Notes: generated from the sequence alone by a model not told the origin. Shown: positions 9,718-42,480, counted from the first letter of the stretch. The stretch: DNA of 64,000 nt from an uncultured Pseudobdellovibrionaceae bacterium (GCA_964520985.1 CAZFPB010000002.1:150115-214114), one strand, 5' to 3'. A program made the numbers and translations.

Positions 9718-9966
9718 ATGCCATCTATTACATATTCATATGTTGTCAATCAATCCGTATGGACTATTGATGCAACGTATGGTGTTCGTTGTGGAATTGT
9801 GAAAACAGTAACATACAATGCTAATGTTGCTAATGTAGATCCAGACGTCGAATATCAGATTCAGTACACCGATTCTATGCATGGAAGCCAAACACTAAAA
9901 GAAGAATTTATCTTTGGTGATATTGATACCGCATTAGCTTCTTATAAAGATTTAATTACTTGCTGA
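9718..9966 (+). CDS. hypothetical small protein
   Basis: Start moved to ATG 9718 to avoid overlapping the upstream gene. Confidence 0.4.
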   Translation: MPSITYSYVVNQSVWTIDATYGVRCGIVKTVTYNANVANVDPDVEYQIQYTDSMHGSQTLKEEFIFGDIDTALASYKDLITC

Positions 9967-9975
9967 GATAAAATA

Positions 9976-10353
9976 ATGAAAACTTTTTTAGAATTTTTAG
10001 ATGAATCTGGTTATATGCCTGATATGGGCAGAGCTTGGACACAAACGTTTGGTGTAGGTTCACCTGAACCTGCTGAAGAACATCCTGACCCTAAATTAAA
10101 TCAAGCATTGAAGCGGCTTCATAGACAATCATATAACATGCGTCGCTCTGACAAAAAAGAAATGGATCGGATTGCTGATATTACTCGGCAACGCGATGAA
10201 GCAGGAATGCATGATTTAACTCCTAACAATTTCATGATCTGGAAAAATGAATACGAAAAACTTTCGAGTGATCCAGAGTTTGATCGTATGTCAGAACAAG
10301 AGAAAGATCAGTATATTCGCCAACGTTTACGTTTGCCGTCAGAGAATTATTAA
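9976..10353 (+). CDS. hypothetical protein
   Basis: 125 aa, charged. Confidence 0.45.
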   Translation: MKTFLEFLDESGYMPDMGRAWTQTFGVGSPEPAEEHPDPKLNQALKRLHRQSYNMRRSDKKEMDRIADITRQRDEAGMHDLTPNNFMIWKNEYEKLSSDPEFDRMSEQEKDQYIRQRLRLPSENY

Positions 10354-12286: not shown

Positions 12287-12517
12287 ATGCTGTCTAAATT
12301 TCCGGAAAAAATCGTTCAACCTAATCCCAATAAGAAAAAACCTCCTGTCAAATATGCGTCTTATCGTGAACAGGTATTGTTGCAACTTTTGCAATATATT
12401 ACTGAAGCACAAGCCGATCTGATTCTTGTTGATAATAAGCAGTCGATGTATGATATGCTTAGACTTCGTATGACACCAGAACAAGCAGCTCAATGGTTAT
12501 TAAATAATAAGGAATAA
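12287..12517 (+). CDS. hypothetical small protein
   Basis: 76 aa ORF with RBS; the antisense ORF 12269-12493 was rejected. Confidence 0.4.
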   Translation: MLSKFPEKIVQPNPNKKKPPVKYASYREQVLLQLLQYITEAQADLILVDNKQSMYDMLRLRMTPEQAAQWLLNNKE

Positions 12518-12518
12518 C

Positions 12519-13025
12519 ATGATTCAGATTAAAATATCGCTAGCAGGTAGGTTCAATAATTGTATTCCAACAATAGAATCTCACCAAGATAAGTACATGT
12601 GGAATCCAGAAACAATACGTGAAAATGAATTAAAATCTCATTTTAACCTTAATACGTTTTCCGATGTTTTGTCAAATTCTGGTCCTACCTTTTCACCTAT
12701 AACACTTCTTTCAAAAATGTTTATAAGAAATTCTAGTGACTTAAAAGGACTGGATTACAATACGCTACATATATCATTAGCAGGGTCTTTCGGGTTAGCT
12801 CATCAGTTAGTCGAGTTTGTTGATTATATGAATAACGATGAACAATCAAAGTATCAATATACCACATTTGAGAAATTATTAGACGTTGAAATATCATGCA
12901 CTAAATCATCAAAACGATACAAATTTCTTAATTGTTCATTAAAATCTGTTGAAATTCCAGTAATAACAGGAAACCTAACCAGCCACGTGTTTTTTAGATT
13001 TTTGCGGGTTGAAATTAACCAATAA
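12519..13025 (+). CDS. hypothetical protein
   Basis: 168 aa; TAACATG overlap with the upstream gene. Confidence 0.45.
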   Translation: MIQIKISLAGRFNNCIPTIESHQDKYMWNPETIRENELKSHFNLNTFSDVLSNSGPTFSPITLLSKMFIRNSSDLKGLDYNTLHISLAGSFGLAHQLVEFVDYMNNDEQSKYQYTTFEKLLDVEISCTKSSKRYKFLNCSLKSVEIPVITGNLTSHVFFRFLRVEINQ

Positions 13026-13070
13026 AATCAATGAGTTACAGAAAATAAACAAAAAATATGTAAAAAGTTG

Positions 13071-13099
13071 TTGACAAAGCACTAAATACAAAATAAGAT
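13071..13099 (+). promoter_or_regulatory. sigma70-like promoter (TTGACA-17-TAAGAT)
   Basis: TTGACA at 13071-76, a 17-nt spacer, then TAAGAT at 13094-99. Sits in an AT-rich gap ahead of a small ORF and the tRNA island. Confidence 0.45.
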
Positions 13100-13133
13100 G
13101 TGCAAACTTTTTACACAAACAGAGATTTTTGAA

Positions 13134-13232
13134 ATGAACGCAAACATAGCCATTATTAAGAACGCGAAGGCGGTGGTGAATAATACCACGAAGCGCGGGC
13201 AGGCTATGATTGGTGGTGGATGCAGCAACTAA
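13134..13232 (+). CDS. possible 32-aa peptide (MNANIAIIKNAKAVVNNTTKRGQAMIGGGCSN)
   Basis: Short ORF between the promoter at 13071 and the terminator at 13262. Below the 60-aa ORF-track cutoff, so found by reading. Confidence 0.25.
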   Translation: MNANIAIIKNAKAVVNNTTKRGQAMIGGGCSN

Positions 13233-13261
13233 AGCTGACAGAAACCGAAGAAAATCAAAAA

Positions 13262-13288
13262 CCTGGCCCTAAAAAGCCAGGTTTTTTC
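13262..13288 (+). terminator. rho-independent terminator
   Basis: CCTGGC-CCTAAAAA-GCCAGG hairpin followed by TTTTTTCG. Confidence 0.7.
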
Positions 13289-13541
13289 GTTTCTGGGATA
13301 TAAAAAATGAATAAAACAGAACAAGATCGACTGATAGCAGAAGCTAATATTCTTCTGGATCGAATAGAAGCAAATTTGCGTTTTATTGTTGAATCGATTC
13401 AGGAGCGTAAAAATGGATTTAGATGAAGTAGTTCGTAAAGCGATTGAGAAAATTGATAGCCTTACAGTTGACGAATTGGAACAAGCGTTAAACAAATACG
13501 GTTATTATCCTGAACGGAAGGATAACCAAGAATAAAGATTT

Positions 13542-13617
13542 GGGGCTAGGGACTGCAGGGGGTGGTCGTCTCACTTGCAATGAGAAAATCAGCGGGGTTC
13601 GATTCCCCGTAGCTCCA
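13542..13617 (+). tRNA. tRNA-Ala(TGC)-like
   Basis: Acceptor GGGGCTA/TAGCTCC with G3:U70 (Ala identity). Anticodon arm TCTCA-CTTGCAA-TGAGA. T-arm CGGGG-TTCGATT-CCCCG. D-loop atypical and variable region 7 nt, so moderate confidence. Confidence 0.5.
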
Positions 13618-13668
13618 CAAGTTAACCTTTAATGACGATAGTTGGTTATTAAAGGATAATGCATGTAT

Positions 13669-13757
13669 AGTAGAGTGGTGTAATGGTTGCACGCTAGGCT
13701 TATAACCTAGAAGCCCCAGATTAGGGCGTGGTGACGGGTTCGATTCCCTCCTCTACT
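13669..13757 (+). tRNA. tRNA-like element, degenerate (anticodon-arm-like CTAGG-CTTATAA-CCTAG, long extra arm)
   Basis: Acceptor-like AGTAGAG/CTCTACT, D-arm GTG-TAATGGTT-CAC, extra hairpin GCCC-CAGATTA-GGGC. The T-stem has only 3 clean bp. Possible pseudo-tRNA. Confidence 0.25.
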
Positions 13758-13767
13758 ACAGAACAAT

Positions 13768-13852
13768 AGTATTGTGGCCGAATGGGTAGGCAACAGCCTG
13801 ATAAGCTGTGTCAGTAATGACGAAGCTGGTTCGAGTCCAGTCAATACTACCA
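13768..13852 (+). tRNA. tRNA with Ile anticodon GAT and a long (type-II-like) variable arm; encoded CCA
   Basis: Acceptor AGTATTG/CAATACT + A + CCA. D GCC-GAATGGGTA-GGC. Anticodon arm ACAGC-CTGATAA-GCTGT. A 15-nt variable arm with hairpin GTCA-GTAA-TGAC. T GCTGG-TTCGAGT-CCAGT. 85 nt. Confidence 0.5.
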
Positions 13853-13865
13853 ATTAGATGGTAGA

Positions 13866-14192
13866 TTGTATATGTATGCACTACAGTACGCTGATTTTCG
13901 ACCCCGCCCATATAATGTGCGGGACATTATAGAAATAGTTATTGATTGGCCAGTGAAAGGATTTGGTTGGATAAGTGGCCAGTTAGATACCACATTAATG
14001 GAATTTTCTAGTGTTAGAGAGTTGTTTAACAAAATTGAAGATTTACCAGATCAATTTTGTTTTAACAGTGAACATTGTAGCGGATTTGTTCAAGGAAATA
14101 ATGTTACAATGCGATTAGGATTAAGCGCCAAAATATCTACGTCGAACGCATCATGGAAGGTAATGTTTGATGAAGTGTCACGACAAAAGTGA
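13866..14192 (+). CDS. hypothetical protein
   Basis: 108 aa ORF between tRNAs. Confidence 0.4.
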   Translation: MYMYALQYADFRPRPYNVRDIIEIVIDWPVKGFGWISGQLDTTLMEFSSVRELFNKIEDLPDQFCFNSEHCSGFVQGNNVTMRLGLSAKISTSNASWKVMFDEVSRQK

Positions 14193-14370
14193 TGAAGAAG
14201 TGATTGAGTTATCTCGTAGCTTGCAGTATGGTTGTCAACAGCAACGAGAGATGATAGCAGAAGCGAAGAGACGTGGAATATTTGATGGTGAACAACATTT
14301 GAGATTGAGTCCAATTGGACAGTTGCTTGAACATAATCCAAATATTGTTAATCGTAGAGTGTAGTTAAAT

Positions 14371-14445
14371 GGGGTGCTGGCGTAATGGCAGCGCACGAGA
14401 CTTTTAATCTCGCAGGTCTGGGTTCGAGTCCCAGGCGCCCCACCA
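14371..14445 (+). tRNA. tRNA-Lys(TTT), CCA encoded
   Basis: Acceptor GGGGTGC/GCGCCCC, D GCG-TAATGGCA-GCGC, anticodon arm CGAGA-CTTTTAA-TCTCG, T CTGGG-TTCGAGT-CCCAG, ACCA 3' end. Confidence 0.85.
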
Positions 14446-14462
14446 AATAGCTTGAGGTATGT

Positions 14463-14768
14463 ATGTTTATAGATATCCGTAAAGCTAATAAGATTGTTGT
14501 TACACAACATGCAAAGCAGCGTGCTTATCAACGTGCTAAGTTGTTTATGTTTCAACATGAATTAGCAAATATACATATCTTTTTGCAGAATGATTTTTTA
14601 TCGTCTTCTGTAGATATGAAATTTGTAGTGGTGCCGTTCTACAAGAACAAGTTGGAAACTAAGTACGGTAAAGGAAGTTTTATTAGCCATTCCAAGTTGT
14701 TTAAGTACATGGCAATGTGTGACAATGATAGGATAGTTATCCGTTCAGTTGCATACATAGGAAATTAG
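14463..14768 (+). CDS. hypothetical protein
   Basis: 101 aa ORF with RBS GAGG. Confidence 0.4.
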   Translation: MFIDIRKANKIVVTQHAKQRAYQRAKLFMFQHELANIHIFLQNDFLSSSVDMKFVVVPFYKNKLETKYGKGSFISHSKLFKYMAMCDNDRIVIRSVAYIGN

Positions 14769-14775
14769 TTACAAT

Positions 14776-14852
14776 GCTCGATTGAAGCCGAATGGGAAGG
14801 CACGATCCTTACAAGGTCGGACGCGGTGGTTCGATTCCACCATCGAGCACCA
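14776..14852 (+). tRNA. tRNA-Val(TAC), CCA encoded
   Basis: Acceptor GCTCGAT/ATCGAGC, anticodon arm CGATC-CTTACAA-GGTCG, T GGTGG-TTCGATT-CCACC, ACCA. Confidence 0.85.
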
Positions 14853-14869
14853 AGTTTTGAGATGGTTTC

Positions 14870-15133
14870 ATGACCCTTGATGAATTATTAGATACAGAAA
14901 TACGTGGTGGTAGATACTGGTTTAAGAATTCAGGGAATGGAACAGTTCGCAAGTTTTTAACCTTGCGATCGTTGCTAGACCGAAATGGAACGTACAACAT
15001 ACAATTTGATTGTACTAAGTATACGGGCACTGTTATTTGTAACGATGCTGAAAATGGTCTAGTTGTTGTACAAATGCTTCATAATGAACATATGAGGTAT
15101 GGGTTCAAGTGGCCATTTAATAAAGCTCAGTAA
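14870..15133 (+). CDS. hypothetical protein
   Basis: 87 aa; its stop codon lies inside the 5' end of the next tRNA. Confidence 0.4.
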   Translation: MTLDELLDTEIRGGRYWFKNSGNGTVRKFLTLRSLLDRNGTYNIQFDCTKYTGTVICNDAENGLVVVQMLHNEHMRYGFKWPFNKAQ

Positions 15134-15199
15134 ACTTTGACGGTGAAGCCTTGCCTTGTAAGCAAGCGGAAGACAGTTCGAATCTGTCACTGAGCTCCA
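15125..15199 (+). tRNA. tRNA-Thr(TGT), CCA encoded
   Basis: Acceptor GCTCAGT/ACTGAGC, anticodon arm CTTGC-CTTGTAA-GCAAG, T GACAG-TTCGAAT-CTGTC, TCCA end. Confidence 0.85.
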
Positions 15200-15215
15200 A
15201 ACAAGAGTTGATTGT

Positions 15216-15419
15216 ATGAAAAATATAAATGATGGTGAGTGGTATCCATGTGCATGTATGGGACCGACAGGTGATGATCCTTACTGTCGTTGTGAGATGA
15301 GACGCAGAGGATTAACTCCAACACCACTGTGGACACCTGAAGCAAGAGAAGAATTGAAAAAAGCACTTCAACGAGTGATGGAAATAGAAGATGAAATGTT
15401 AAATCAGTCAAAGGACTGA
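15216..15419 (+). CDS. hypothetical small Cys-containing protein
   Basis: 67 aa with CACMGPTGDDPYCRCE. Confidence 0.4.
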   Translation: MKNINDGEWYPCACMGPTGDDPYCRCEMRRRGLTPTPLWTPEAREELKKALQRVMEIEDEMLNQSKD

Positions 15420-15428
15420 TTTAACAAT

Positions 15429-15499
15429 AGGTCTGTCGTCTAATGGCAAGACACACCCCTGATTAGGGTGGAACTCAGGTTCGAGTCCTGACTGACCTA
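15429..15499 (+). tRNA. tRNA-Ile(GAT)-like variant (U at position 37, one acceptor mismatch)
   Basis: Anticodon arm CACCC-CTGATTA-GGGTG is nearly identical to the canonical Ile tRNA at 18021, except a T at position 37. D GTCT-AATGGCA-AGAC; T TCAGG-TTCGAGT-CCTGA. Confidence 0.5.
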
Positions 15500-15504
15500 C
15501 GAAG

Positions 15505-15580
15505 GTGAGACCATCGTTCAACGGAGAGGATACCGGTCGCGGAGATCGGAGATCTAGGTTCGAATCCTAGTGGAATTACC
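15505..15580 (+). other. tRNA-like fragment with a canonical T-arm and tandem GGAGATC GGAGATC, no acceptor pairing found
   Basis: CTAGG-TTCGAAT-CCTAG T-arm at 15554-15570; no complementary 5' acceptor partner within about 80 nt upstream. Confidence 0.25.
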
Positions 15581-15634
15581 TGTGGATAAATAAACAATTG
15601 TTGTGCTCTCCATAAATACTCTATTTGGAGTATT

Positions 15635-16192
15635 TTGAAGTTGTGGAAGTGCAAACATTGTAATATTGAGTTTAATTTTGATACCAAATCTGAAAAAGCA
15701 AACCATACCAGATGGTGTCATTTAAATCCAAAAAGAAGTCAATTTATAGAAGAGAATAAGCAAAGAGCTGTCGAACGCAACATTCAACGATTTGGGTTGT
15801 TTGTTGATATTGACGTTGAATGTTCTACTTGTGAATGTACATTCACAATAACAGAGCGATCCAAACTCTTTGACAGTAATAAAAAGTATTATTGTAGTAA
15901 AACGTGTTCTAATAGTGTTGGTGGTGCAGCAAACGCAGCTAGATTAGAAGCGAATGGTGAATTTAAAAGTTACACAGTAATATGTTTTAAACATCATAAA
16001 AGATGTTGTATACTGTGTGGCTTTGATAAAATAGTTGAAGTGCATCATTATGATTATAACCATCATAATAATGTACCTGAGAATTTAGTTCCTTTATGTC
16101 CAAATCATCATCAAATGGTGCATTCGAAATATAGGAGCGAGATAATTTCTGACGTCGATGCATATGTTAAGAAATTTAAAGATGGGCTGTAG
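15635..16192 (+). CDS. HNH endonuclease with N-terminal zinc-finger-like region
   Basis: C-terminal CILCGF...VEVHHYD...NLVPLCPNHHQMVH is an HNH motif. N-terminal CKHCN...HTRWCH. Embedded in the tRNA island. Confidence 0.65.
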   Translation: MKLWKCKHCNIEFNFDTKSEKANHTRWCHLNPKRSQFIEENKQRAVERNIQRFGLFVDIDVECSTCECTFTITERSKLFDSNKKYYCSKTCSNSVGGAANAARLEANGEFKSYTVICFKHHKRCCILCGFDKIVEVHHYDYNHHNNVPENLVPLCPNHHQMVHSKYRSEIISDVDAYVKKFKDGL

Positions 16193-16255
16193 GTGTTGAT
16201 GGGGGCACGCGAGCTTTGCACGCTTGAGGGAACGGTTCGATTCCGTTACGGTCCA
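16184..16255 (+). tRNA. tRNA-Ala(TGC)
   Basis: Acceptor GGGCTGT/ACGGTCC with G3:U70. D GTGT-TGATGGGG-GCAC. Anticodon arm CGAGC-TTTGCAC-GCTTG. T AACGG-TTCGATT-CCGTT. Overlaps the HNH stop codon. Confidence 0.65.
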
Positions 16256-16272
16256 CAAATAGAGGATTAAAC

Positions 16273-16509
16273 ATGCTTGTACGTGTGAAAGACCTTAAAA
16301 AGTTTGACGGTTATGTGTTTGGTGCTGATTGCTTCTTAAAGAATTGGCCTGAAATTAAAACAACTGGTATTGAAGTAAAACTGATTGGTGAGTTTTACTA
16401 TGTAATGGTAGATGGAAAACAAGCAGGTCTTTCTGCTTTTTTCAGTGAAGAAGAAATGCAATACCTCGAACAGGTTCCTCCTGATGTGTCGAGTCTAGTA
16501 AAGGATTAA
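16273..16509 (+). CDS. hypothetical small protein
   Basis: 78 aa with RBS GAGGA. Confidence 0.4.
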   Translation: MLVRVKDLKKFDGYVFGADCFLKNWPEIKTTGIEVKLIGEFYYVMVDGKQAGLSAFFSEEEMQYLEQVPPDVSSLVKD

Positions 16510-16511
16510 GT

Positions 16512-16835
16512 GTGAAGATATTGTTTGTGTGCAGACAGGGAAGAATGAGAAGTAGGACAGCTGCCCATGTCTTTAAAAGCTACACAGTTGACACGCAGTA
16601 TTGTGGTACAGATAGTGACAGTCATGTTCCATGTACACAGGATATGATTGATAAATGTGACATAATTGTGTGTATGGAAGATCAAAATTATTGGGAGATA
16701 GTTCAAAATTTTGATCTGAATGGAAGACCAATTAAGACGCTAGGTCTTCCAGACGAATATGATTACATGGATGATGGATTGATTCAGTTGTTAAAGATCG
16801 CTCTATCAAAGAATGGAATTTTAAATTTTTTGTAG
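16512..16835 (+). CDS. hypothetical protein
   Basis: 107 aa, Cys-rich. Confidence 0.4.
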   Translation: MKILFVCRQGRMRSRTAAHVFKSYTVDTQYCGTDSDSHVPCTQDMIDKCDIIVCMEDQNYWEIVQNFDLNGRPIKTLGLPDEYDYMDDGLIQLLKIALSKNGILNFL

Positions 16836-16839
16836 TAAT

Positions 16840-16912
16840 TATTAGTTGGTGTAGTGGGAGCACAATGACCCGCAGAGGGTTAGAGGGAATGGTTCGAATC
16901 CATTACTAATAG
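16840..16912 (+). tRNA. tRNA, anticodon unresolved (non-canonical anticodon loop)
   Basis: Acceptor TATTAGT/ACTAATA, D GTGT-AGTGGGA-GCAC, T AATGG-TTCGAAT-CCATT. Best anticodon stem is TGACC/GGTTA with loop CGCAGAG, which lacks U33. Confidence 0.45.
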
Positions 16913-16998
16913 CGTAAGCGACGTTGCTTAGTAGAATCTGTAATCCTCTCTTTGGACGGGACCAGGCGGGGGCGATCGCAAAGGTTTGGAGTTGTGTT

Positions 16999-17226
16999 AT
17001 GAAAATGTGGTATGTTCTTGTTGAAATGAAAAATTCTACAAGACCGTTGATTGATACTGTTGTGACTGATGATACTGTTGAACAATCACAATTAGAAGAG
17101 TACGTGAATGCGATGTACGCAAAATATAACATGGCTTCGCATTTTTTAAGTGTGAAAAGCGTGCATGATATTGGACCTTGCTATACAATTATGGGTACAG
17201 AAGTTACATTTATGGATGAAAATTAA
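16999..17226 (+). CDS. hypothetical small protein
   Basis: Start moved to ATG 16999 to clear the upstream tRNA. Confidence 0.35.
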   Translation: MKMWYVLVEMKNSTRPLIDTVVTDDTVEQSQLEEYVNAMYAKYNMASHFLSVKSVHDIGPCYTIMGTEVTFMDEN

Positions 17227-17234
17227 GAAATAAT

Positions 17235-17324
17235 TCCGCTCGGGCTGGCTAGGTGAAGGCTTTCGGCTGTTAACCGAATGACTCCTTAAATGGAGGCGAG
17301 GTTCGAATCCTCGGGGCGGAGCCA
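17235..17324 (+). tRNA. tRNA with Asn anticodon GTT and a long (type-II-like) variable arm; CCA encoded
   Basis: Acceptor TCCGCTC/GGGCGGA + G + CCA. Anticodon arm TTCGG-CTGTTAA-CCGAA. An 18-nt variable arm with hairpin CTCC-TTAAAT-GGAG. T CGAGG-TTCGAAT-CCTCG. 90 nt. Confidence 0.5.
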
Positions 17325-17343
17325 AATTAAAGAGAATAGAAGT

Positions 17344-17775
17344 ATGAGAGGTGATAGAACAAAACAGAAGGGAACGCTGGGTGAGCTTTGTGTTATGTTT
17401 GAAGCAGCGAAACGTGGATATAATGTTCTAGTGCCTTGTGGTGATTATTCTCAATACGATTTAGTGGTAGAACGTAACGGAAAGTTTGAACGAGTTCAGG
17501 TTAAATCTGTAACTCCAAAAGATGGAAAGTTGTGTGTTCATACTAAAAGTATGACTTTTGACAAAGAACAAAGTACAAATAATCGAAGTAAACAAGTAAA
17601 ATATTCTGCAGGTGATTTTGATTGGTTAGCTGCGTATGATTTAGAAAATGATGAAGTATATTTCATTCCGGCAAATTTAGTAGTTAATCGAACAAGTTTT
17701 GCATTGCGTTTATCTGATACAAAGAATGGTCAAATAGCAAATGTTCGATTTGCTAAAGACTTTCAAAATTGGTAA
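17344..17775 (+). CDS. PD-(D/E)XK-like nuclease family protein (putative)
   Basis: Start moved to ATG 17344 to clear the tRNA. GDYSQYDLVVERNGKFERVQVKS has a D...(D/E)xK arrangement typical of restriction-endonuclease-fold nucleases. Confidence 0.4.
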   Translation: MRGDRTKQKGTLGELCVMFEAAKRGYNVLVPCGDYSQYDLVVERNGKFERVQVKSVTPKDGKLCVHTKSMTFDKEQSTNNRSKQVKYSAGDFDWLAAYDLENDEVYFIPANLVVNRTSFALRLSDTKNGQIANVRFAKDFQNW

Positions 17776-17785
17776 ACATTAGTAT

Positions 17786-17927
17786 TGGCATGTAGCTCAG
17801 CGGTAGAGCTGGTGACTGTTTTGGTTGTAATTCAACCATTATCGTTTCTATGAGACGATAAGAATTGATGTATAAACATCACAGATTAATCACCCGGTCG
17901 TAGGTTCGATCCCTACCATGCCAGCCA
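17786..17927 (+). tRNA. interrupted tRNA gene: intact 5' and 3' halves separated by a 76-nt three-hairpin insert in the anticodon loop; CCA encoded
   Basis: 5' half is TGGCATG-TA-GCTC-AGCGGTA-GAGC-T-GGTGA. 3' half is TCACC-CGGTC-GTAGG-TTCGATC-CCTAC-CATGCCA-G-CCA. Acceptor pairs 7/7. Anticodon stem GGTGA/TCACC encloses an insert with hairpins TGGTTG/CAACCA, TTATCGT/ACGATAA and GATGT/ACATC. Confidence 0.55.
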
Positions 17928-18020
17928 TTGTGAATATTGGGCTCTTGACCCAATGTGGTAAGGTTGCTGAGATGGGGCAACTAGTGTCTAGCGAATTGGA
18001 AGGGGGCGAAGACACAAACT

Positions 18021-18092
18021 AGCGGATTAGCTCAGTGGTAGAGCACACCCCTGATAAGGGTGGGGCCATGGGATCGTAACCCATATCCGCTA
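18021..18092 (+). tRNA. tRNA-Ile(GAT)
   Basis: Acceptor AGCGGAT/ATCCGCT, D GCTC-AGTGGTA-GAGC, anticodon arm CACCC-CTGATAA-GGGTG, T ATGGG-ATCGTAA-CCCAT (A at position 54). Confidence 0.8.
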
Positions 18093-18094
18093 CA

Positions 18095-18198
18095 GAATCG
18101 TAAGTGGGCAGGACTAGGGTTCGATTCCCTTTAGGTATGGTACTGAACATGAGGCGCTGAAAGCCTCAGCCTTCAAGGTTCGATTTCTTGACGATTCT
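18095..18198 (+). ncRNA. elongated tRNA-like RNA (104 nt): terminal acceptor stem, two T-arm-like hairpins and an anticodon-arm-like hairpin
   Basis: Ends GAATCGT/ACGATTC pair 7/7. 3' proximal T-arm CAAGG-TTCGATT-TCTTG. Internal AGGG-TTCGATT-CCCT. Hairpin TGAGGC-GCTGAAA-GCCTCA. Confidence 0.4.
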
Positions 18199-18221
18199 TC
18201 AACTAACGTAGAATAAAAAAT

Positions 18222-18530
18222 ATGAATCGTCTGCAATGGTTATTATCCAAATTAGCTGAAGAAGCTAGTGAAGTCAGTCAAATCTCCCTTAAAACATCTC
18301 AATTTGGTCCGGATGAAGTCATGCCTGGCCAGCCGTTAACAAACTTTCAACGTACTCATGGTGAGTTGAATGATTTGTTGGCTATTGTTGAAGTGCTTAA
18401 TGATGAGTATAATTTTGATTTTAAATGTGATCTAAATTCATTAGATCGCAACGCTATTGAATTAAAGAAACAGAAGCTTGAAAAATACTATCGTTATTCT
18501 GTGAGCTTAGGATTGGTTAAAGATGAGTGA
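18222..18530 (+). CDS. hypothetical protein
   Basis: 102 aa ORF. Confidence 0.4.
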   Translation: MNRLQWLLSKLAEEASEVSQISLKTSQFGPDEVMPGQPLTNFQRTHGELNDLLAIVEVLNDEYNFDFKCDLNSLDRNAIELKKQKLEKYYRYSVSLGLVKDE

Positions 18531-19080
18531 CATCATTAAACTGTATGGTAAAGATATTGATATTTCCAATCTGAAACTGTCTGATATCACAAATGCATTT
18601 GTTGATAATATTTGGACAGAACAAGAATTAGAAAAAATGTGTCAAACTCATCGTAGCCAACAAAATACTTTTGTATATTTTGAAAGTGATGAATTATATC
18701 ATGCAATGTTCGAAATATTGGAAACGATGAACGTTGATATTCAGCATATTAAAAATAAGCTAATTGCTAAACTAGCGCCTCATATCTATCTTAACGATTG
18801 CGATTATTCGATACAAGATGTAACGGTGCCTGCATATTCGGATGGTGAATCGTGTTTAACAGCTACAATTGTAAGATATGTTGTAAAAGTGGATACGGTA
18901 AATGACGTGCGGGGCCAAATTAAATCGAAGCTCAAACAAGCTATTAAACGACGTGACCAAAAACAACGCGAAATAAAAGAAGACCTTGAAACATTGAATC
19001 GTCTGCAGCAAAAATATGGCGCTCAACTTGATACCCTTTTACAAAAGGAACAGTCAGATGAAGGCTATCCGTATTCATAA
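18523..19080 (+). CDS. hypothetical protein
   Basis: 185 aa; ATGA overlap with the upstream ORF. Confidence 0.45.
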   Translation: MSDIIKLYGKDIDISNLKLSDITNAFVDNIWTEQELEKMCQTHRSQQNTFVYFESDELYHAMFEILETMNVDIQHIKNKLIAKLAPHIYLNDCDYSIQDVTVPAYSDGESCLTATIVRYVVKVDTVNDVRGQIKSKLKQAIKRRDQKQREIKEDLETLNRLQQKYGAQLDTLLQKEQSDEGYPYS

Positions 19081-19085
19081 TATAA

Positions 19086-19161
19086 GCACAGTCGTATCGG
19101 GTGGTCCGAGACAACGAAGGCCAAGTTGGATAAATTGGTTCGATTCCAATACTGTGCGCCA
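19086..19161 (+). tRNA. tRNA, anticodon unresolved; CCA encoded
   Basis: Acceptor GCACAGT/ACTGTGC + G + CCA and T ATTGG-TTCGATT-CCAAT are canonical. The D/anticodon region GTATCGGGTGGTCCGAGACAACGAAGGCCAAG does not give a canonical 7-nt U33 anticodon loop. Confidence 0.5.
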
Positions 19162-19178
19162 ATAATAAAAGGTGTAAA

Positions 19179-19541
19179 ATGCAAGATCAATTCATCCGTG
19201 GATATACATGTGTATCTAAAACGTGGTACGGTTCATATGTTTTAGAAAATATGGGACCTGATATTTGTGAAATGTTTATCGTAGGTATGTACAACGCAAA
19301 CACAATTAAACCTTTAGGTGAATTCTCAATAATTTGGTTTAAGCACCAAGGTAAGGTAATACCAAAAGTAGAAATGATCGACAGCGGTTGGAAAGCATTT
19401 CATACGTCAGGTATATTAAGTGCATTAGTTCAAGCTGAACATGTTGGAAATACATCACCTGATGATATTGAACAGTTGTTATTGAATTTGAATTTCATTA
19501 ATGTGACTCAACAAGAACAATCATCAGACCTAGACTACTGA
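19179..19541 (+). CDS. hypothetical protein
   Basis: 120 aa ORF. Confidence 0.4.
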   Translation: MQDQFIRGYTCVSKTWYGSYVLENMGPDICEMFIVGMYNANTIKPLGEFSIIWFKHQGKVIPKVEMIDSGWKAFHTSGILSALVQAEHVGNTSPDDIEQLLLNLNFINVTQQEQSSDLDY

Positions 19542-19548
19542 GGACGCA

Positions 19549-20001
19549 ATGATGCATTTGGTTTATAAAAAAATTGTCATGAAAGTGGCACAAGCCTTGA
19601 TTAATGATTTTTCAATGGTGTCATTCGAAGATGCTCACAAATATTTGATTCCTGAAGATCAGATAGATGACATGAAATATGTTGTTACTGAAACGCAGAT
19701 TCAAAAATTTGTGGATGCAATAACAGAAACAGTTGTTAATATGTGTGCAACAGAATTGGATGAGATTCAGTGGCACGTGGATAACGGAACACAGAAACCG
19801 TATAAGAATGCAGTTGATCTTGCGCAACAGATACGTCGGAAATTCTTGGTGGATGATTGGATTTCTGTTGATGACCGGTTGCCCTCCGATGGTGATTTTA
19901 TCGAAGGCAAGTCAAAAGATGGTACATGGACTGAAACGTGGGATAGTGATGAACCTCTTGGGTTGATGACTCATTGGCGATTGGTCGAACAGGAACAATA
20001 A
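19549..20001 (+). CDS. hypothetical protein
   Basis: 150 aa. Confidence 0.4.
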   Translation: MMHLVYKKIVMKVAQALINDFSMVSFEDAHKYLIPEDQIDDMKYVVTETQIQKFVDAITETVVNMCATELDEIQWHVDNGTQKPYKNAVDLAQQIRRKFLVDDWISVDDRLPSDGDFIEGKSKDGTWTETWDSDEPLGLMTHWRLVEQEQ

Positions 20002-20372
20002 TGGGCTGTTTTGTCTACAATGTAATTGGCGTTACTGATGATTATGAATGTCGTGATCATGAAATAATTAAATCGTTTTTTAATGAACAGAAAGCAATTG
20101 ATTTTTGTAATGAATTACGAAAAGATTTGCCAATTCTTAGTGCTATTTCTAATGGATTTATAAGCTACATGGCGAATTGGTGGGAAGGTAATCCGTATTC
20201 ATCAGTTGTGAATAATGTAGATGATTTTGATGAAAAGTATCTTAAAACAGTAACCGACTACGCAAACCGATTTACAACTGATCAAGAGATAGTTGATTAT
20301 TTTGTGCAAAACGCCCATCAGGATTTTCACAGAAAATCGTACATAGTCAGATCAATATGGGTGGACGATTAA
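20001..20372 (+). CDS. hypothetical protein
   Basis: Start at the TAATG overlap at 20001. Confidence 0.4.
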   Translation: MGCFVYNVIGVTDDYECRDHEIIKSFFNEQKAIDFCNELRKDLPILSAISNGFISYMANWWEGNPYSSVVNNVDDFDEKYLKTVTDYANRFTTDQEIVDYFVQNAHQDFHRKSYIVRSIWVDD

Positions 20373-20651
20373 ATGATAAAACCAAAACCAGATTATCAAT
20401 ACCTGTACATTACGTGTAAGGGAAAAGGTGGTGTTTATAAACTGATTTGTGCAGCTGATGGTGCTGGAACAAGTCGTGGAACCACTAAAATAGTATATCA
20501 AGACGCATTCGATGACTTGCGCTTTTTCGTTCGTGATTCCGAAGATTTTTATGAGCGAATGGAACTTATTCCTCGAGAGCAAATAGAACAAGCAATTCAA
20601 ACAGAATTTGATAATAGAGAACAAGATGGACAATCGAATATTAAGTATTAA
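20373..20651 (+). CDS. hypothetical protein
   Basis: 92 aa. Confidence 0.4.
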   Translation: MIKPKPDYQYLYITCKGKGGVYKLICAADGAGTSRGTTKIVYQDAFDDLRFFVRDSEDFYERMELIPREQIEQAIQTEFDNREQDGQSNIKY

Positions 20652-21021
20652 CGGGAAAGGTGATCAGTTCCTACAAGAAGTATTGACCTTAGCCTTTAAG
20701 CAACAGGGCTACATTCAAAAATGTGATGGTTGGGCTGAAAATGAAGCAGGCCTAATTCTGCTGTGGAGTGCAGAAGATAAGGAAACTCATAAGTTTCCAG
20801 GTGGCGGACTAACGGCTGAACAAGTAACACCAATTGTTAGTGCTTGGTTGAAAAACAACGACCCCAATAAGTTTGACTTGGGCGATTGGGAACACGATCT
20901 TAGTCATGACGGCCACAACTCTGTTGGTTTTCGAGTGTATTGTGAAGATTGGGGTCATGCTGGTGGATTTCATTGCGCAATTTGTGCAGTGAAACCAGTT
21001 TATCTGTGGCATGGAAAATAA
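20608..21021 (+). CDS. hypothetical protein
   Basis: 137 aa with a C-terminal His/Cys cluster; overlaps the upstream ORF, so the true start may be an internal ATG. Confidence 0.35.
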   Translation: MIIENKMDNRILSINGKGDQFLQEVLTLAFKQQGYIQKCDGWAENEAGLILLWSAEDKETHKFPGGGLTAEQVTPIVSAWLKNNDPNKFDLGDWEHDLSHDGHNSVGFRVYCEDWGHAGGFHCAICAVKPVYLWHGK

Positions 21022-21023
21022 TT

Positions 21024-21344
21024 ATGAGCCAGTTATCTTTGTTGGAAAATCCACACATATCAATTGAAGACAGATTGGAAATTGCAAAAGGTGCTGTAGA
21101 GTACTTTGAACAACTGAGTACGTGTTGGAAGACAGCGTATGATAATTCTAAACAAGAGTTAGAAGACTATCAAACGTTTGTAATCGGCACATTAGCACAA
21201 CTTGGTGCTGTTACTAAAAAAGCTGATGGTTCTCCTCGTTTTCATTTGGATATTTTAATGGATCCGAAAGGACTATTAATGGTTGAACCGGGTGAACAGT
21301 TAATTGCTGCAAAAGATGTTGACGAATCATCAAACGATGAGTAA
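21024..21344 (+). CDS. hypothetical protein
   Basis: Start moved to ATG 21024. Confidence 0.4.
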   Translation: MSQLSLLENPHISIEDRLEIAKGAVEYFEQLSTCWKTAYDNSKQELEDYQTFVIGTLAQLGAVTKKADGSPRFHLDILMDPKGLLMVEPGEQLIAAKDVDESSNDE

Positions 21345-21377
21345 GATTACTAAATAACACTTCGGTGTTATTTAAAA

Positions 21378-21452
21378 GCTCAGTAAACTTTGATGGTGAA
21401 GCCTTGTCTTGTAAGCAAGCGGAAGGCGGTTCGAATCCGCCACTGAGCTCCA
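21378..21452 (+). tRNA. tRNA-Thr(TGT), second copy; CCA encoded
   Basis: Near-identical to 15125-15199 in acceptor, D and anticodon arms (CTTGT-CTTGTAA-GCAAG). T-arm differs (GGCGG-TTCGAAT-CCGCC). Confidence 0.85.
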
Positions 21453-21464
21453 GAGATTTAACCT

Positions 21465-21725
21465 ATGAAAATGCATAAAATAGAATTGTACGTTTTGGAT
21501 TTTGAAGATTATGGGATTGAAGAGTGTACTTCGATATTAGAACACATCGATCCTCACGGAGCTATAGTAAAAGTTAATCCAATTGGTTCTGTTGAGATCG
21601 GTGAATGGCATGATGGCCATGAATTAAATTTCCGTAGTACGGATTATAATAAGTATTTCGCAAAAGCAGATGATGATCGTCGAGTTCAATGGTATCATCG
21701 TTTTTGCAAAAATTCTGAACAATAG
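21465..21725 (+). CDS. hypothetical protein
   Basis: 86 aa. Confidence 0.4.
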   Translation: MKMHKIELYVLDFEDYGIEECTSILEHIDPHGAIVKVNPIGSVEIGEWHDGHELNFRSTDYNKYFAKADDDRRVQWYHRFCKNSEQ

Positions 21726-21726
21726 T

Positions 21727-21856
21727 AAGTGACGATAATCGGATCGTAAAAATAACAGATAGGTTGGTGGTAGGTTCCAATGAGCTTAGTGCTTACGTCC
21801 TCCATATAATGCCTGATGCACTGTTATCGGATAAGGTTCAATTCCTTACGCTTACT
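21727..21856 (+). ncRNA. elongated or interrupted tRNA-like locus (about 130 nt)
   Basis: 5' GTAAGTG pairs with 3' CGCTTAC (one GU) next to a canonical T-arm TAAGG-TTCAATT-CCTTA. D-arm-like CGAT-AATCGG-ATCG. A 6-bp helix TAACAG/CTGTTA encloses about 60 nt. Confidence 0.3.
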
Positions 21857-21993
21857 CGAAGATGTTGCGTAGTGAACGGTTACTTCGACTGTTAATCGAG
21901 AAGAGAAGGTTCGAATCCTTCCATCCCGTAGGGATGTAGTGTAATGGTAGCACTCTAAAATCTCCGTTTGCGTTTTTATCTCATCTTTTTTAT

Positions 21994-22077
21994 AAGTCAG
22001 TAGACTAGCAAGTGTCGCCCTAGTCAGATAGCTCGAAAGAGCTGGAGTTCCAGTAGGTTCGAATCCTACCTGGCTTG
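21994..22077 (+). tRNA. tRNA-like, type-II length (84 nt), anticodon unresolved
   Basis: Acceptor AAGTCAG/CTGGCTT (one GU), T GTAGG-TTCGAAT-CCTAC. Internal 6-bp GACTAG/CTAGTC helix and AGCTC-GAAA-GAGCT hairpin. Confidence 0.3.
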
Positions 22078-22079
22078 CT

Positions 22080-22199
22080 AACGTAATGGTCTAGCGGATA
22101 AGACACTCGTACGAGGGTTGGAAGCTGTTCGATTCAGCTGAATGCACGGTGACCGTAATTCCGCAACGAGAAAGGTACGTTCGAATCGTACTTACGTTT
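22080..22199 (+). ncRNA. elongated tRNA-like RNA (120 nt) with a terminal acceptor stem and two T-arm-like hairpins
   Basis: Ends AACGTAA/TTACGTT pair 7/7. 3' T-arm GTACG-TTCGAAT-CGTAC. Internal AGCTG-TTCGATT-CAGCT. D-loop-like TAGCGGATAA. Confidence 0.35.
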
Positions 22200-22219
22200 C
22201 ATTTATTAAGGATTACATA

Positions 22220-22807
22220 ATGACAGATGTAATTGTTCATAATGCTTATGGCAACATTGACGTATATCCAGCAACTTTAGAACACGCCCTCAAATTAGTT
22301 AATCTGCAAGTGTTTAGTGGTGATTATTCGAATGCTTGTGAATTCTTTGAAAATATAAAAAACAAAATAAACATTAGTGGAGATATGGTATGCAGAGCAA
22401 TACACGACGTGTGTATGTTACCTGTTGATACTCCATCAAAGTATCTAAATGCATTGACAGATGGTAAGTATCGTACCATTACAGCAGATATTAAGAATGA
22501 AACAATAATATATTTGTGGAATCATCAAATTACCATAAAACATCCAACATATAGTGGAATGTTTGGCAGGTTAACTATACTGCAACCTCAACGATCCTTA
22601 ACCTATTTGAAACAGTTTGATCAACAAACAGATTGTTATTTTTATTATCCAGATCAATTAGACCGATATTCGCAATTGCGGTGTATTATTGAAGGAAGAT
22701 GGAAAGAAACAGCTAGTGAAATTAGCAAAATTAAATACATTGTTGAATTTCTGAATGAACATTATTCAAACGATAGTAAATTTTACATTACATCAATACA
22801 GGAATAG
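22220..22807 (+). CDS. hypothetical protein
   Basis: Start moved to ATG 22220 (MTDVIVHNAYG), downstream of the tRNA-like element. Confidence 0.45.
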   Translation: MTDVIVHNAYGNIDVYPATLEHALKLVNLQVFSGDYSNACEFFENIKNKINISGDMVCRAIHDVCMLPVDTPSKYLNALTDGKYRTITADIKNETIIYLWNHQITIKHPTYSGMFGRLTILQPQRSLTYLKQFDQQTDCYFYYPDQLDRYSQLRCIIEGRWKETASEISKIKYIVEFLNEHYSNDSKFYITSIQE

Positions 22808-22809
22808 TT

Positions 22810-23034
22810 ATGTCTTTACAAGATAAATTAAACGAACTTGAACAATTCATTCGTGCTAAAGCTGAAACAGAAACATGGGACGATCAGTTTATTGATAAAG
22901 ATGGTAATTTCACAGATGTTTGTGTATTTGACTTATCGGGTGGTAATGTAGACGATGCATACGAAGGTGGAGCACGTGCAGGCGAATCACGCTTTGCATG
23001 TGAATTACTAGAACGTTTCTTCAAACCAGAGTAA
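22810..23034 (+). CDS. hypothetical small acidic protein
   Basis: 74 aa. Confidence 0.4.
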   Translation: MSLQDKLNELEQFIRAKAETETWDDQFIDKDGNFTDVCVFDLSGGNVDDAYEGGARAGESRFACELLERFFKPE

Positions 23035-23039
23035 CAGTT

Positions 23040-23222
23040 ATGGATATTAGTGTTCAACTAGTAGAAGCACTTGCACAAGAGGCAGGGCTTGACCAATTAT
23101 GTGGTTGGGATGATGATAACAATCCTAAAGATTACTACGAATGTTGGCCGGAAGATCTGCAGAGATTTGCAGTGCTATTGATTGAACATTATAAGCTAAA
23201 AACTGTTGACCTTCCTGCCTAA
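23040..23222 (+). CDS. hypothetical small acidic protein
   Basis: 60 aa. Confidence 0.35.
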   Translation: MDISVQLVEALAQEAGLDQLCGWDDDNNPKDYYECWPEDLQRFAVLLIEHYKLKTVDLPA

Positions 23223-23241
23223 ATAGGTTATAGTGTTATAA

Positions 23242-23496
23242 ATGGTAGTAACTGCAATGGGTTCTAACTGTATGAAAACACTGGATGAGTACAAGCGTCT
23301 TATTGGTTATACGGTTAGAAAGACTTCTCGTAAACCGTTTAAGTCTGGGACCAAGGTAAATACTGTTGCAGGAGTGGTGGTTCATCCGTTTCTGGGTGTA
23401 CCGAGTTTTACGTTTGTTGAGGATGATTCTTATGTCGAATGCCGCCGGTGTCGTTCAGTTGAACAGCAACCAAGAAAAATACTGGATTCCGAGTGA
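23242..23496 (+). CDS. hypothetical protein
   Basis: 84 aa. Confidence 0.35.
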   Translation: MVVTAMGSNCMKTLDEYKRLIGYTVRKTSRKPFKSGTKVNTVAGVVVHPFLGVPSFTFVEDDSYVECRRCRSVEQQPRKILDSE

Positions 23497-23650
23497 CGGT
23501 GATGCACCGCATGCTATTTGCTTTTCTGGATCGGAAGCATTTGGTTTTGGTGCAAATTACATCGACTCGTTTGACGAAAAAGGTAAACGACTGTGTACGT
23601 ACACGCTAAATAGTGATGGTGAGACGTATACCTGTCATCTCATCAACTAA
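23441..23650 (+). CDS. hypothetical protein
   Basis: Start at ATG 23441 with RBS GAGGA; overlaps the upstream ORF by 56 nt in another frame. Confidence 0.35.
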   Translation, partial: AAGVVQLNSNQEKYWIPSDGDAPHAICFSGSEAFGFGANYIDSFDEKGKRLCTYTLNSDGETYTCHLIN

Positions 23651-23656
23651 CTAGTT

Positions 23657-23729
23657 GCCGCACAAACTTTGATTGGTGAAGCCCTTCTTGGTAAGAAGGC
23701 AGAAGACAGTTCGAATCTGTCGTGTGGCA
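23657..23729 (+). tRNA. tRNA-Thr(GGT)
   Basis: Acceptor GCCGCAC/GTGTGGC, D-arm shared with the other Thr genes, anticodon arm CCTTC-TTGGTAA-GAAGG, T GACAG-TTCGAAT-CTGTC. Confidence 0.8.
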
Positions 23730-23734
23730 CAAAT

Positions 23735-23809
23735 GCTCAGTAAACTTTGCTGGTGAAGCCCGCTCTCGTAAAGCGGTTGAAGACAGTTCGAATCTGTCAC
23801 TGAGCTCCA
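23735..23809 (+). tRNA. tRNA-Thr(CGT), CCA encoded
   Basis: Acceptor GCTCAGT/ACTGAGC, anticodon arm CCGCT-CTCGTAA-AGCGG, T GACAG-TTCGAAT-CTGTC, TCCA. Confidence 0.8.
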
Positions 23810-23827
23810 ACTCATCGGAGAAATTGT

Positions 23828-24103
23828 ATGAGTTCCTTTCTTGAGCAATACTTTCAAAATCAAATGCAGGAAGTTCCTATCAATAGCCAAGTATTGAAGG
23901 AAATCAATTTCGTTCGTGAAAAACATGGATATCCAACTTACTCGTCTGATAAAGTTGGTAAACATCTGTTGTACTATTTTGTTGAAGCTAACAACAAACT
24001 TTCCTTGGCCAATGTGTGGGAAGATGATGTTGAATTGCGTTTAAGAAACGCAGAGTATGTGGAGTCACACGCAGACAAACCTGTATTCAAATACAACGAT
24101 TAA
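23828..24103 (+). CDS. hypothetical protein
   Basis: 91 aa. Confidence 0.4.
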   Translation: MSSFLEQYFQNQMQEVPINSQVLKEINFVREKHGYPTYSSDKVGKHLLYYFVEANNKLSLANVWEDDVELRLRNAEYVESHADKPVFKYND

Positions 24104-24113
24104 CGGGATACTT

Positions 24114-33142: not shown

Positions 33143-33143
33143 T

Positions 33144-42408: not shown

Positions 42409-42480
42409 GACTGATTAGTATAATGGCATTACACAGGTCTCTAAAGCCGTGAGACGAGGGTTCGAATCCCTCATCAGTCA
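42409..42480 (+). tRNA. tRNA-like, atypical (9-nt anticodon-type loop), identity unresolved
   Basis: Acceptor GACTGAT/ATCAGTC, D GTA-TAATGGCAT-TAC, T GAGGG-TTCGAAT-CCCTC. The only helix available for the anticodon arm is GTCTC/GAGAC around TAAAGCCGT. Confidence 0.35.

Follow-up and report, generated by a model that had tools for sequence, protein, structure and literature searches.

Two nuclease genes of probable homing type, each linked to particular tRNA genes, in the tRNA island of an uncultured phage

The tRNA clusters of phages have come to be seen as an armoury of counter-defence against tRNA-cleaving enzymes of the host; how they are built up and pass between phages is, to our knowledge, poorly understood. 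This question is raised by a 64,000-nucleotide (nt) stretch of phage DNA deposited under an uncultured Pseudobdellovibrionaceae bacterium (GCA_964520985.1 CAZFPB010000002.1:150115-214114; hereafter the window, with positions counted from its first letter). Its tRNA island spans ~13.5–24 kb and contains 15 tRNA genes called by ARAGORN, plus a further one detected by Rfam across a long insertion, and two nuclease genes, one of the HNH type and one of the PD-(D/E)XK type, are embedded in it. What are nuclease genes doing among tRNA genes? A first-pass annotation proposed that they are homing endonucleases driving tRNA duplications and insertions, or parts of a mobile cassette with tRNA cargo. Our analysis of the encoded proteins, their predicted folds and their neighbourhoods in other phages indicates that both are probably free-standing homing-type endonuclease genes of phage tRNA clusters, which use tRNA genes as landmarks. 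Free-standing homing endonucleases in such clusters are an already known kind of element. The features of the locus are collected in Table 1.

Table 1. Nuclease genes of the window and the tRNA features next to them
Feature	Position	Strand	Evidence
Free-standing HNH endonuclease gene	15635..16192	+	ORF list, PHROG, invariant motif, AlphaFold2
tRNA-Ala(UGC) with G3·U70 pair	16184..16256	+	ARAGORN; Rfam tRNA 41.8 bits
Long-variable-arm (type II) tRNA, GUU anticodon, 90 nt	17235..17324	+	ARAGORN; Rfam 34.8 bits; cloverleaf fold
Free-standing PD-(D/E)XK endonuclease gene, I-Ssp6803I family, 143 aa	17344..17775	+	Pfam, PDB, fold, residues
Interrupted tRNA-Asn(GUU)	17786..17927	+	Rfam tRNA 51.1 bits (17786-17924); ARAGORN intron option; alignment
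67-nt insert with three small hairpins	17819..17885	+	fold; no Rfam family

The PD-(D/E)XK open reading frame (ORF) is contained in a longer frame (17290–17775), and its homologues start at 17344. Its product matched Pfam family PF11645 (PDDEXK_5) over profile positions 3–136 of 138 (101.3 bits against a cut-off of 26.1; E=6 × 10−29), and the sole sequence match in the PDB was 2OST, the homing endonuclease I-Ssp6803I (E=5.7 × 10−10), with which the stretches YDLV and VQVKS align. The AlphaFold2 model (mean predicted local distance difference test score (pLDDT) 88.7) retrieved 2OST chains as its top four Foldseek matches in the PDB (template modelling (TM) score 0.73, E=8 × 10−11), followed by archaeal Hjc resolvases (E~6 × 10−4). 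Furthermore, the catalytic residues E14 (helix 1), D39 (in YDLV), Q52 and K54 (in Q-x-K) were invariant in 14 homologues, and the PADLOC model 'HEase' matched the protein with E=2 × 10−12. The nuclease fold anticipated for this ORF is thus confirmed by Pfam, by sequence similarity to 2OST and by the predicted structure.

The HNH ORF encodes 185 amino acids from a TTG start codon. Its homologues begin at the motif MW(K/E)CKHC, which corresponds to a second TTG at 15641, so that the true start may lie 6 nt further downstream; a GGAG Shine–Dalgarno sequence at 15627–15630 is followed by this second TTG after 10 nt. Six PHROG 'HNH endonuclease' families matched the ORF (E=1 × 10−8 to 2 × 10−4), and the Pfam models HNH_3 and HNH_2 matched the protein below their cut-offs. 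The signature C125xxC128, H137-H138, N150, C155, H159 and H163 was invariant or nearly so among 16–19 aligned homologues. The protein comprises an N-terminal C2HC-like zinc finger, a central zinc ribbon (C63/C66/C87/C91) and a C-terminal HNH domain; its AlphaFold2 model (mean pLDDT 92) gave local Foldseek matches only, to the HNH domains of McrA, IscB and Cap5 (E=0.03–0.1, probability ≤0.99), and a PDB sequence search returned marginal matches alone, to IscB and a nicking-endonuclease HNH domain. The PADLOC 'HEase' model matched weakly. NCBIfam held no model for either nuclease protein, and neither matched the GIY-YIG profiles of Pfam and PHROG. Both ORFs therefore encode nucleases of families that include homing endonucleases, as judged from the HNH motif in one case and from PF11645 and 2OST in the other.

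Both genes are also free-standing, as first proposed. A search of positions 12500–24500 with Rfam at E≤1 returned tRNAs and a weak YrlA-like match only, with no group I intron; a group I intron hosting the PD-(D/E)XK gene was ruled out, the ORF lying between two tRNA genes with no Rfam intron there. This ORF lies between the long-arm Asn-type tRNA, which ends 19 nt upstream of its ATG and recurs as a neighbour, in alignable copies, in L004 and L007, and a split tRNA-Asn that begins 10 nt after its stop codon. Promoters or terminators of their own, above shuffled expectation, were found for neither nuclease gene. The two ORFs have the lowest GC content at third codon positions in the island (0.24 for HNH and 0.18 for PD-(D/E)XK, against 0.26–0.36 for the other island ORFs), which is a weak hint of foreign origin.

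To place the locus among phages, we compared it with contigs reached through protein homologues and a metagenome scan (numbered L004 and so on). One Logan contig, L003, was the same phage at 100% identity and the only identical contig found. Megablast of the window against the phage collection returned no close DNA relative, its sole match being a 38-nt tRNA stretch, and the description of the phage as T4-like was not established; scans of IMG/VR with both nucleases and two flanking proteins likewise returned no close relative and nothing useful. More distant relatives share with the window a backbone of NAMPT, NADAR, CCA-adding enzyme and Ro60 genes at 40–60% amino-acid identity. Of the island ORFs, only the HNH and PD-(D/E)XK genes have homologues in the otherwise divergent tRNA clusters of these relatives.

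The HNH gene proved to be linked to one tRNA. In the window, the last 9 nt of its ORF, two sense codons and the TAG stop, are also the first 9 nt of tRNA-Ala(UGC), so that the overlap noted at first pass is confirmed by the ORF list and ARAGORN alike. A metagenome scan with an alignment of the HNH family yielded 80 loci, which formed 60 clusters at 80% amino-acid identity that we treat as lineages. In 40 of the 60, the end of the HNH ORF abuts tRNA-Ala(UGC) or, typically, overlaps it by 8–15 nt, whereas this isoacceptor makes up 10.7% of the 600 tRNAs in the HNH loci (binomial P~7 × 10−25, with lineages taken as independent). The junction itself is conserved (commonly ...AAAT/GGGG...), with a C-terminal K-W-G encoded across the 5′ end of the tRNA, while the upstream neighbours are highly variable and include Lys, Thr, Asp, Pro, Gly, Arg, Ser, Met, Val, Cys and Tyr tRNAs. 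Minor HNH clades are attached to tRNA-Pro(UGG) or tRNA-Ala(GGC) instead. This module was also seen in L008, in the cultured T4-like Vibrio phage nt-1 (ORF189, overlapping tRNA-Ala) and in L020, whose nuclease lies between two divergent tRNA-Ala genes; tRNA-Ala(UGC) genes with no HNH gene attached are found in L004 (10634–10708), L008 and L011. The overlap in the window is one local case of a two-gene arrangement that is widespread and strongly non-random, and its conserved junction fits the earlier suggestion of a cassette with tRNA cargo. The tie between one HNH family and a single isoacceptor, with a conserved fusion of ORF and tRNA, appears to be new.

The PD-(D/E)XK gene is likewise a resident of tRNA clusters, and its position varies. 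Orthologues with 50–65% identity always lay in tRNA clusters, with the stop codon 1–10 nt before a tRNA. They are found between Lys(UUU) and the long-arm GUU tRNA in L004, between the long-arm GUU tRNA and Lys(CUU) in L007, and between Lys(CUU) and Ile(GAU) in L011; in L008–L010 an ORF rather than a tRNA lies upstream and an ordinary tRNA-Asn(GUU) downstream, and in L005 and L006 the flanking genes are tRNA-Asn(GUU) upstream and Pro(UGG) downstream. L004, L007 and L011 have the backbone Lys(UUU)/long-arm GUU/Lys(CUU) in common, and the nuclease gene occupies three different slots within it, a positional polymorphism expected of a mobile gene. Taken together with the variable upstream flanks of the HNH gene, the patchy distribution and shifting position of both genes agree with the prediction that nuclease presence and position differ among relatives.

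More distant homologues of the PD-(D/E)XK protein (~30% identity) extend this picture. One lies 23 nt after tRNA-Asn(GUU) in Kuttervirus and Taipeivirus, one 45 nt before tRNA-Asn(GUU) in Pseudoalteromonas phage J2-1 and one in the tRNA cluster of cyanophage Sf-FR1; others overlap tRNA-Ser in Streptomyces phage Bartholomune, tRNA-Ile in the T5-like Pectobacterium phage My1 and tRNA-Met in the KVP40-like Vibrio phage phi-pp2. Most of the phage groups examined have their PF11645 relatives within or next to tRNA clusters; the nearest tRNA is 138 nt away in Enterococcus phage EFP01 and ~450 nt away in an uncultured 484-kb phage, and in T7-like phages (gp5.3) and Bacillus phage PK2 the homologues are near DNA polymerase genes, not tRNAs. 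A GUU tRNA was the immediate neighbour in 7 of the 11 first-examined lineages, where the tRNA composition of the individual loci predicts ~2.5 (Poisson-binomial P~1 × 10−3), the three later contexts (Ser, Ile and Met) standing outside the test. A metagenome scan with the alignment of this family (15 sequences, too diverse as a query) gave no confirmed match. The I-Ssp6803I family as a widespread, free-standing resident of phage tRNA clusters appears to be a new observation.

These distributions bear on the possibility that the two proteins are ordinary housekeeping or accessory nucleases, such as an Hjc-type resolvase, a packaging HNH enzyme or enzymes for host-DNA degradation, that happen to occupy a permissive spot in the island. 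Archaeal Hjc resolvases are the second-best fold matches of the PD-(D/E)XK model, some homologues in Streptomyces phages are annotated as 'Holliday junction resolvase', and the island is full of unrelated small ORFs that all abut tRNAs tightly. The match to I-Ssp6803I is far better than that to Hjc, however (TM score 0.73 against ~0.46), the genes are sporadic among relatives and variable in position, and such an enzyme would hardly be expected to show the isoacceptor linkage of the HNH family; the polymerase-adjacent PF11645 homologues of T7-like phages and PK2 also show the lineage-specific locations typical of homing endonuclease families. We therefore consider a housekeeping role improbable.

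The closest precedent for the PD-(D/E)XK protein is I-Ssp6803I itself, encoded in the group I intron of the Synechocystis tRNA-fMet gene. The two have PF11645, the fold and the D...QxK pattern in common and are similar in length (~150 against 143 amino acids), at ~28–30% identity, and both are associated with tRNA genes. I-Ssp6803I targets the anticodon stem-loop of a tRNA gene, and a target of this kind is plausibly common to both. They differ in that the window gene is free-standing between phage tRNAs, beside GUU tRNAs rather than tRNA-fMet, and that its homologues, as found in this analysis, occur in many phage families. Location within an intron is a trait of the prototype and not of the protein family as such. 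The site bound by I-Ssp6803I is a 23-bp pseudo-palindrome, and a review describes its family as generally encoded in cyanobacteria (PMC3384342). Given the I-Ssp6803I target and the preference of the lineage for GUU tRNAs, the target of the window enzyme would most likely be the anticodon region of tRNA-Asn-type genes.

For the free-standing arrangement, the T4 endonuclease SegB, a GIY-YIG enzyme encoded in the tRNA cluster, offers a second precedent: it recognises a motif of the tRNA TψC arm and, with the tRNA genes that flank it, is preferentially inherited (PMC2330249). The segB ORF ends at tRNA-Arg, and RNase P, in maturing this tRNA, separates the last codon of the ORF from the stop codon, which has been proposed to limit expression (PMC2330249); the overlap of the HNH ORF with tRNA-Ala is of the same kind. 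The F-TflI, F-TflII as well as F-TflIV endonucleases of phage T5 likewise lie in a tRNA cluster; the phage search turned up no similarity to T5. As with the window nucleases, SegB and the T5 enzymes are free-standing, lie inside tRNA clusters and are absent from some relatives. By catalytic family, however, the window proteins are HNH and PD-(D/E)XK enzymes and not members of the SegB family, and SegB has no tRNA isotype preference (PMC13096335), whereas two thirds of the lineages in the window HNH family have tRNA-Ala(UGC) as their partner.

By these precedents, homing of the HNH gene would proceed as follows. In a co-infection, the enzyme would cut the DNA of a related phage with a tRNA-Ala locus devoid of the HNH gene, and recombinational repair from the nuclease-bearing genome would copy the HNH gene together with the adjoining tRNA-Ala. 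RNase P maturation at 16183/16184 would strip the final codons and the stop codon from the HNH mRNA and, by analogy with segB and tRNA-Arg of T4, would probably keep expression low.

A different role for the same enzymes would be that they are kept because the phage benefits, either through SegB-like amplification of tRNA genes against tRNA-cleaving defences or through exclusion of competitors' markers in the tRNA region. Across phages, SegB shows an enrichment close to tRNAs, and it can drive the amplification of tRNA segments, of tRNA-Tyr and of other anti-defence loci (PMC13096335). In the window, two tRNA-Thr(UGU) genes (15122–15199 and 21375–21452) that are 92% identical and 6.25 kb apart flank the block with both nucleases, and same-anticodon tRNAs flank nuclease genes in the window (GUU) and in L020 (Ala). 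The members of these same-anticodon pairs are strongly divergent, not fresh duplicates, and tandem amplification could be seen around neither nuclease gene. We give this explanation little credence as a replacement for homing, to which it adds rather than being an exclusive alternative.

The same observations lend no support to the initial view that the nucleases drive the tRNA duplications of the island. No direct repeats bracketing either nuclease gene individually were seen in the window, and a recent nuclease-driven tandem duplication was rejected on this ground together with the divergence of the flanking pairs. Apart from the tRNA-Thr(UGU) pair, no near-identical repeat and no clearly recent tRNA duplication was observed in the island.

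The split tRNA-Asn next to the PD-(D/E)XK gene raises the further question of whether the insert and the nuclease are related. The interrupted gene (fold z-score −4.9) consists of exon 1 (17786–17818), the insert and exon 2 (17886–17927), the insert splitting the anticodon loop as CUG/UUAA; because of a TT repeat, its boundaries can be moved by up to 2 nt. Removal of the insert restores a perfect tRNA-Asn cloverleaf of 75 nt with U1-A72, G73 and an encoded CCA end, which aligns with uninterrupted tRNA-Asn genes. The insert is single-copy in the window, which rules it out as a repeated mobile element.

Comparable interruptions were detected in other phages by Rfam and by ARAGORN with its intron option. 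In L005, a tRNA-Asn(GUU) at 9871–9976 is interrupted by a 32-nt insert unrelated to that of the window; it occupies position 34/35, which is among the placements that the TT repeat permits for the window insert, and 24 nt separate this tRNA from the orthologous PD-(D/E)XK gene downstream. A type II tRNA-Leu(UAA) of the same contig (13692–13810) carries a 34-nt insert and abuts an HNH gene (PF01844) on the minus strand. HNH homologues of the window family also stand beside interrupted tRNAs: a G3·U70 tRNA-Ala with a 46-nt insert overlaps the end of one in L044 (2116–2237), and a tRNA-Pro(UGG) with a 78-nt insert follows another by 60 nt in L023 (6609–6783). Interrupted tRNAs with no recognised nuclease beside them are present in L004 (16467–16597), L043 (5086–5217) and L079 (5551–5699). 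The inserts are 32–78 nt long and lie at positions 33–38, within the anticodon loop, the phage tRNAs that carry them (Asn, Leu(UAA), Ala and Pro) being canonical in other respects, and no intron or ribozyme family of Rfam matches them. Next to PD-(D/E)XK genes, tRNA-Asn is interrupted in two of five cases as against none of 42 elsewhere (Fisher P=0.009) in loci that were all ascertained through nuclease genes; a causal link between this nuclease and the split tRNA-Asn is suggestive only. The recurrence of short, non-group I inserts in the anticodon loops of partner tRNAs appears to be new.

As separate observations on these inserts, the two of L005 have a hairpin motif in common (GCAYCTGCCYACG...CGGGTG), and those in tRNA-Leu(UAA) fall at or beside U34/A35, where the cyanobacterial group I intron classically lies. 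Several 'intron' calls by ARAGORN turned out to be fusions of two neighbouring tRNAs and were dropped. The apparent intron in a tRNA-Arg of Klebsiella phage FKP10 (L018, PP974338.1) was also rejected, being a 29-nt internal duplication: the annotated 103-nt 'tRNA-Arg' at 332–437 and 1332–1437 contains a tandem 29-nt duplication of the D-arm and anticodon-stem region, and the 1-kb segment present twice could be a real amplification or an assembly artefact.

We propose that the 67-nt insert disrupts the target site of the adjacent PD-(D/E)XK nuclease. Lying mid-way in the anticodon loop of tRNA-Asn, it would separate two half-sites and render the phage's own copy uncleavable, as in collaborative homing. 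In cyanophage S-PM2, the free-standing nuclease F-CphI mobilises the psbA group I intron, which in turn protects the host copy (PMC6083498), and T4 mobE with I-TevIII is a comparable collaborative case (PMC2790892). As in the F-CphI/psbA system, a free-standing nuclease gene adjoins an interrupted gene in the window and L005, and in the HNH cases of L044, L023 and the tRNA-Leu of L005. Unlike the psbA intron, the inserts (67 nt here, 32–78 nt in relatives) are too short for group I introns and contain no ribozyme by Rfam; moreover, the interrupted gene is a tRNA here and protein-coding in the cyanophage, and removal of the insert from RNA is hypothetical in our case.

Should the inserts leave the RNA, they might do so by a protein-dependent cut-and-ligate reaction of a kind yet to be described for bacteria infected by phages, in which case inserts that split the nuclease site for self-immunity and are then excised would amount to a new system of spliced tRNA introns and mobility. 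This idea draws on the two RNA ligases, the CCA-adding enzyme and the Ro60/Y-RNA pair encoded by this phage, and we hold it to be doubtful. That the PD-(D/E)XK protein itself acts on RNA, excising the inserts from precursor tRNAs for the phage ligases to rejoin the halves, is very improbable: the gene does lie close to an interrupted tRNA-Asn in both the window and L005, the RNA-processing genes just named are available, Rfam finds no self-splicing intron in the 67-nt insert and the PD-(D/E)XK fold is distantly related to the tRNA-splicing endonucleases of archaea, but the nearest characterised relative is a DNA endonuclease whose metal-dependent D...QxK site is conserved, no splicing endonuclease is among the fold matches, many lineages with the gene have no interrupted tRNA nearby (L007, L008, L011, Kuttervirus and J2-1) and interrupted tRNAs also adjoin HNH genes instead.

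Several points weigh against the interpretation of the two genes as homing endonucleases and of the insert as a protective element. No near-identical genome devoid of either nuclease, which would allow an empty-site comparison, was found in the phage collection or IMG/VR. All small ORFs of the island stop within ~10 nt of the next tRNA or overlap it, so the tight nuclease–tRNA junctions are not special within the window; what makes the HNH junction special is the recurrence of the HNH/tRNA-Ala pairing across many other phages. Even there, the independence of lineages assumed by the adjacency statistics is only approximate, and the conserved HNH/tRNA-Ala junction could equally result from vertical co-inheritance of a useful two-gene unit. 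Interruption of HNH partner tRNAs is not significantly enriched (2/62 against 5/540, P=0.16), and these counts carry the same ascertainment through nuclease genes as those for tRNA-Asn. Finally, uninterrupted tRNA-Asn genes stand beside the PD-(D/E)XK gene in three lineages (L008, Kuttervirus/Taipeivirus and J2-1); an insert is therefore not required for coexistence with the nuclease, and in these lineages protection, if needed, must come from sequence differences.

Several other features of the island were recorded. Besides the long-arm GUU tRNA of Table 1, which has a G73 discriminator and an encoded CCA end, the window contains type II tRNAs with the anticodons UAU (13669–13759) and GAU (13768–13852), and long-arm tRNAs are present in relatives too (L004, 10436–10530 and 15183–15274; L007, 4771–4853; L008, 4878–4970). 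These three anticodons read Ile and Asn codons, normally the domain of short-arm tRNAs, and the genes are conserved across related phages; their products might be charged with Ser, Leu or Tyr, or might be decoys. Three tRNA-like stretches were called by neither ARAGORN nor Rfam: 17928–18020, a hairpin with a CUCUUGA loop resembling the Lys-CUU anticodon loop; 18094–18208 (114 nt), with the acceptor stem GAATCGT/ACGATTC and two T-arm-like GGTTCGATT motifs; and 19086–19165, with a T arm as well as an acceptor stem and with GCCA encoded at its end, starting right after the end of the ORF at 18523–19080. A tRNA-Ala(UGC)-like gene at 13542–13618 scored best with the transfer-messenger RNA model RF00023 (25 bits, tRNA-like domain only), and its odd D-arm (GGGACTGC..GGGGTGG) recurs in many metagenomic HNH-attached tRNA-Ala genes (for example L048, L054, L063 and L079). 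Between tRNA-Ala and tRNA-Leu, a small ORF (16512–16835) barely exceeded the cut-off of PF01451, low-molecular-weight phosphotyrosine phosphatase (23.7 bits against 23.2). Distant from the main island, a tRNA with a CUA anticodon (42409–42481), labelled tRNA-Pyl by ARAGORN, is a potential amber suppressor.

The window also encodes an RNA-repair toolkit consisting of a YrlA-like Y RNA (31 bits, under the Rfam gathering score), Ro60/TROVE, two PF09414 RNA ligases and a CCA-adding enzyme (RNA ligase genes at 33111–34166 and 43161–44348; Y RNA, Ro60 and CCA-adding enzyme at 21873–21973, 34795–36312 and 7265–8353, respectively). The Ro60 and CCA-adding genes are common to the relatives L004, L008 and L011. 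In L023, a related 173-kb phage contig, a GOLLD RNA (RF02032, 202 bits; 1478–1949) with an embedded tRNA adjoins a T4-type RNA ligase 1 gene and the tRNA cluster.

If both genes are homing endonucleases as we think probable, two more nuclease families behave like T4 SegB, each tied to a particular tRNA isoacceptor. Their recurrence, with the HNH/tRNA-Ala module in dozens of lineages and the I-Ssp6803I-like gene beside GUU tRNAs, suggests that homing endonucleases act generally as carriers of single tRNA genes from one phage to another. For the PD-(D/E)XK homing family, the findings imply a move from a cyanobacterial intron niche to a widespread free-standing niche in phages, and its phage members would be a source of many natural forms of a compact scaffold for DNA recognition directed at tRNA genes. 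If the short anticodon-loop inserts are spliced, introns of a new type would have to be recognised in the bacterial world.

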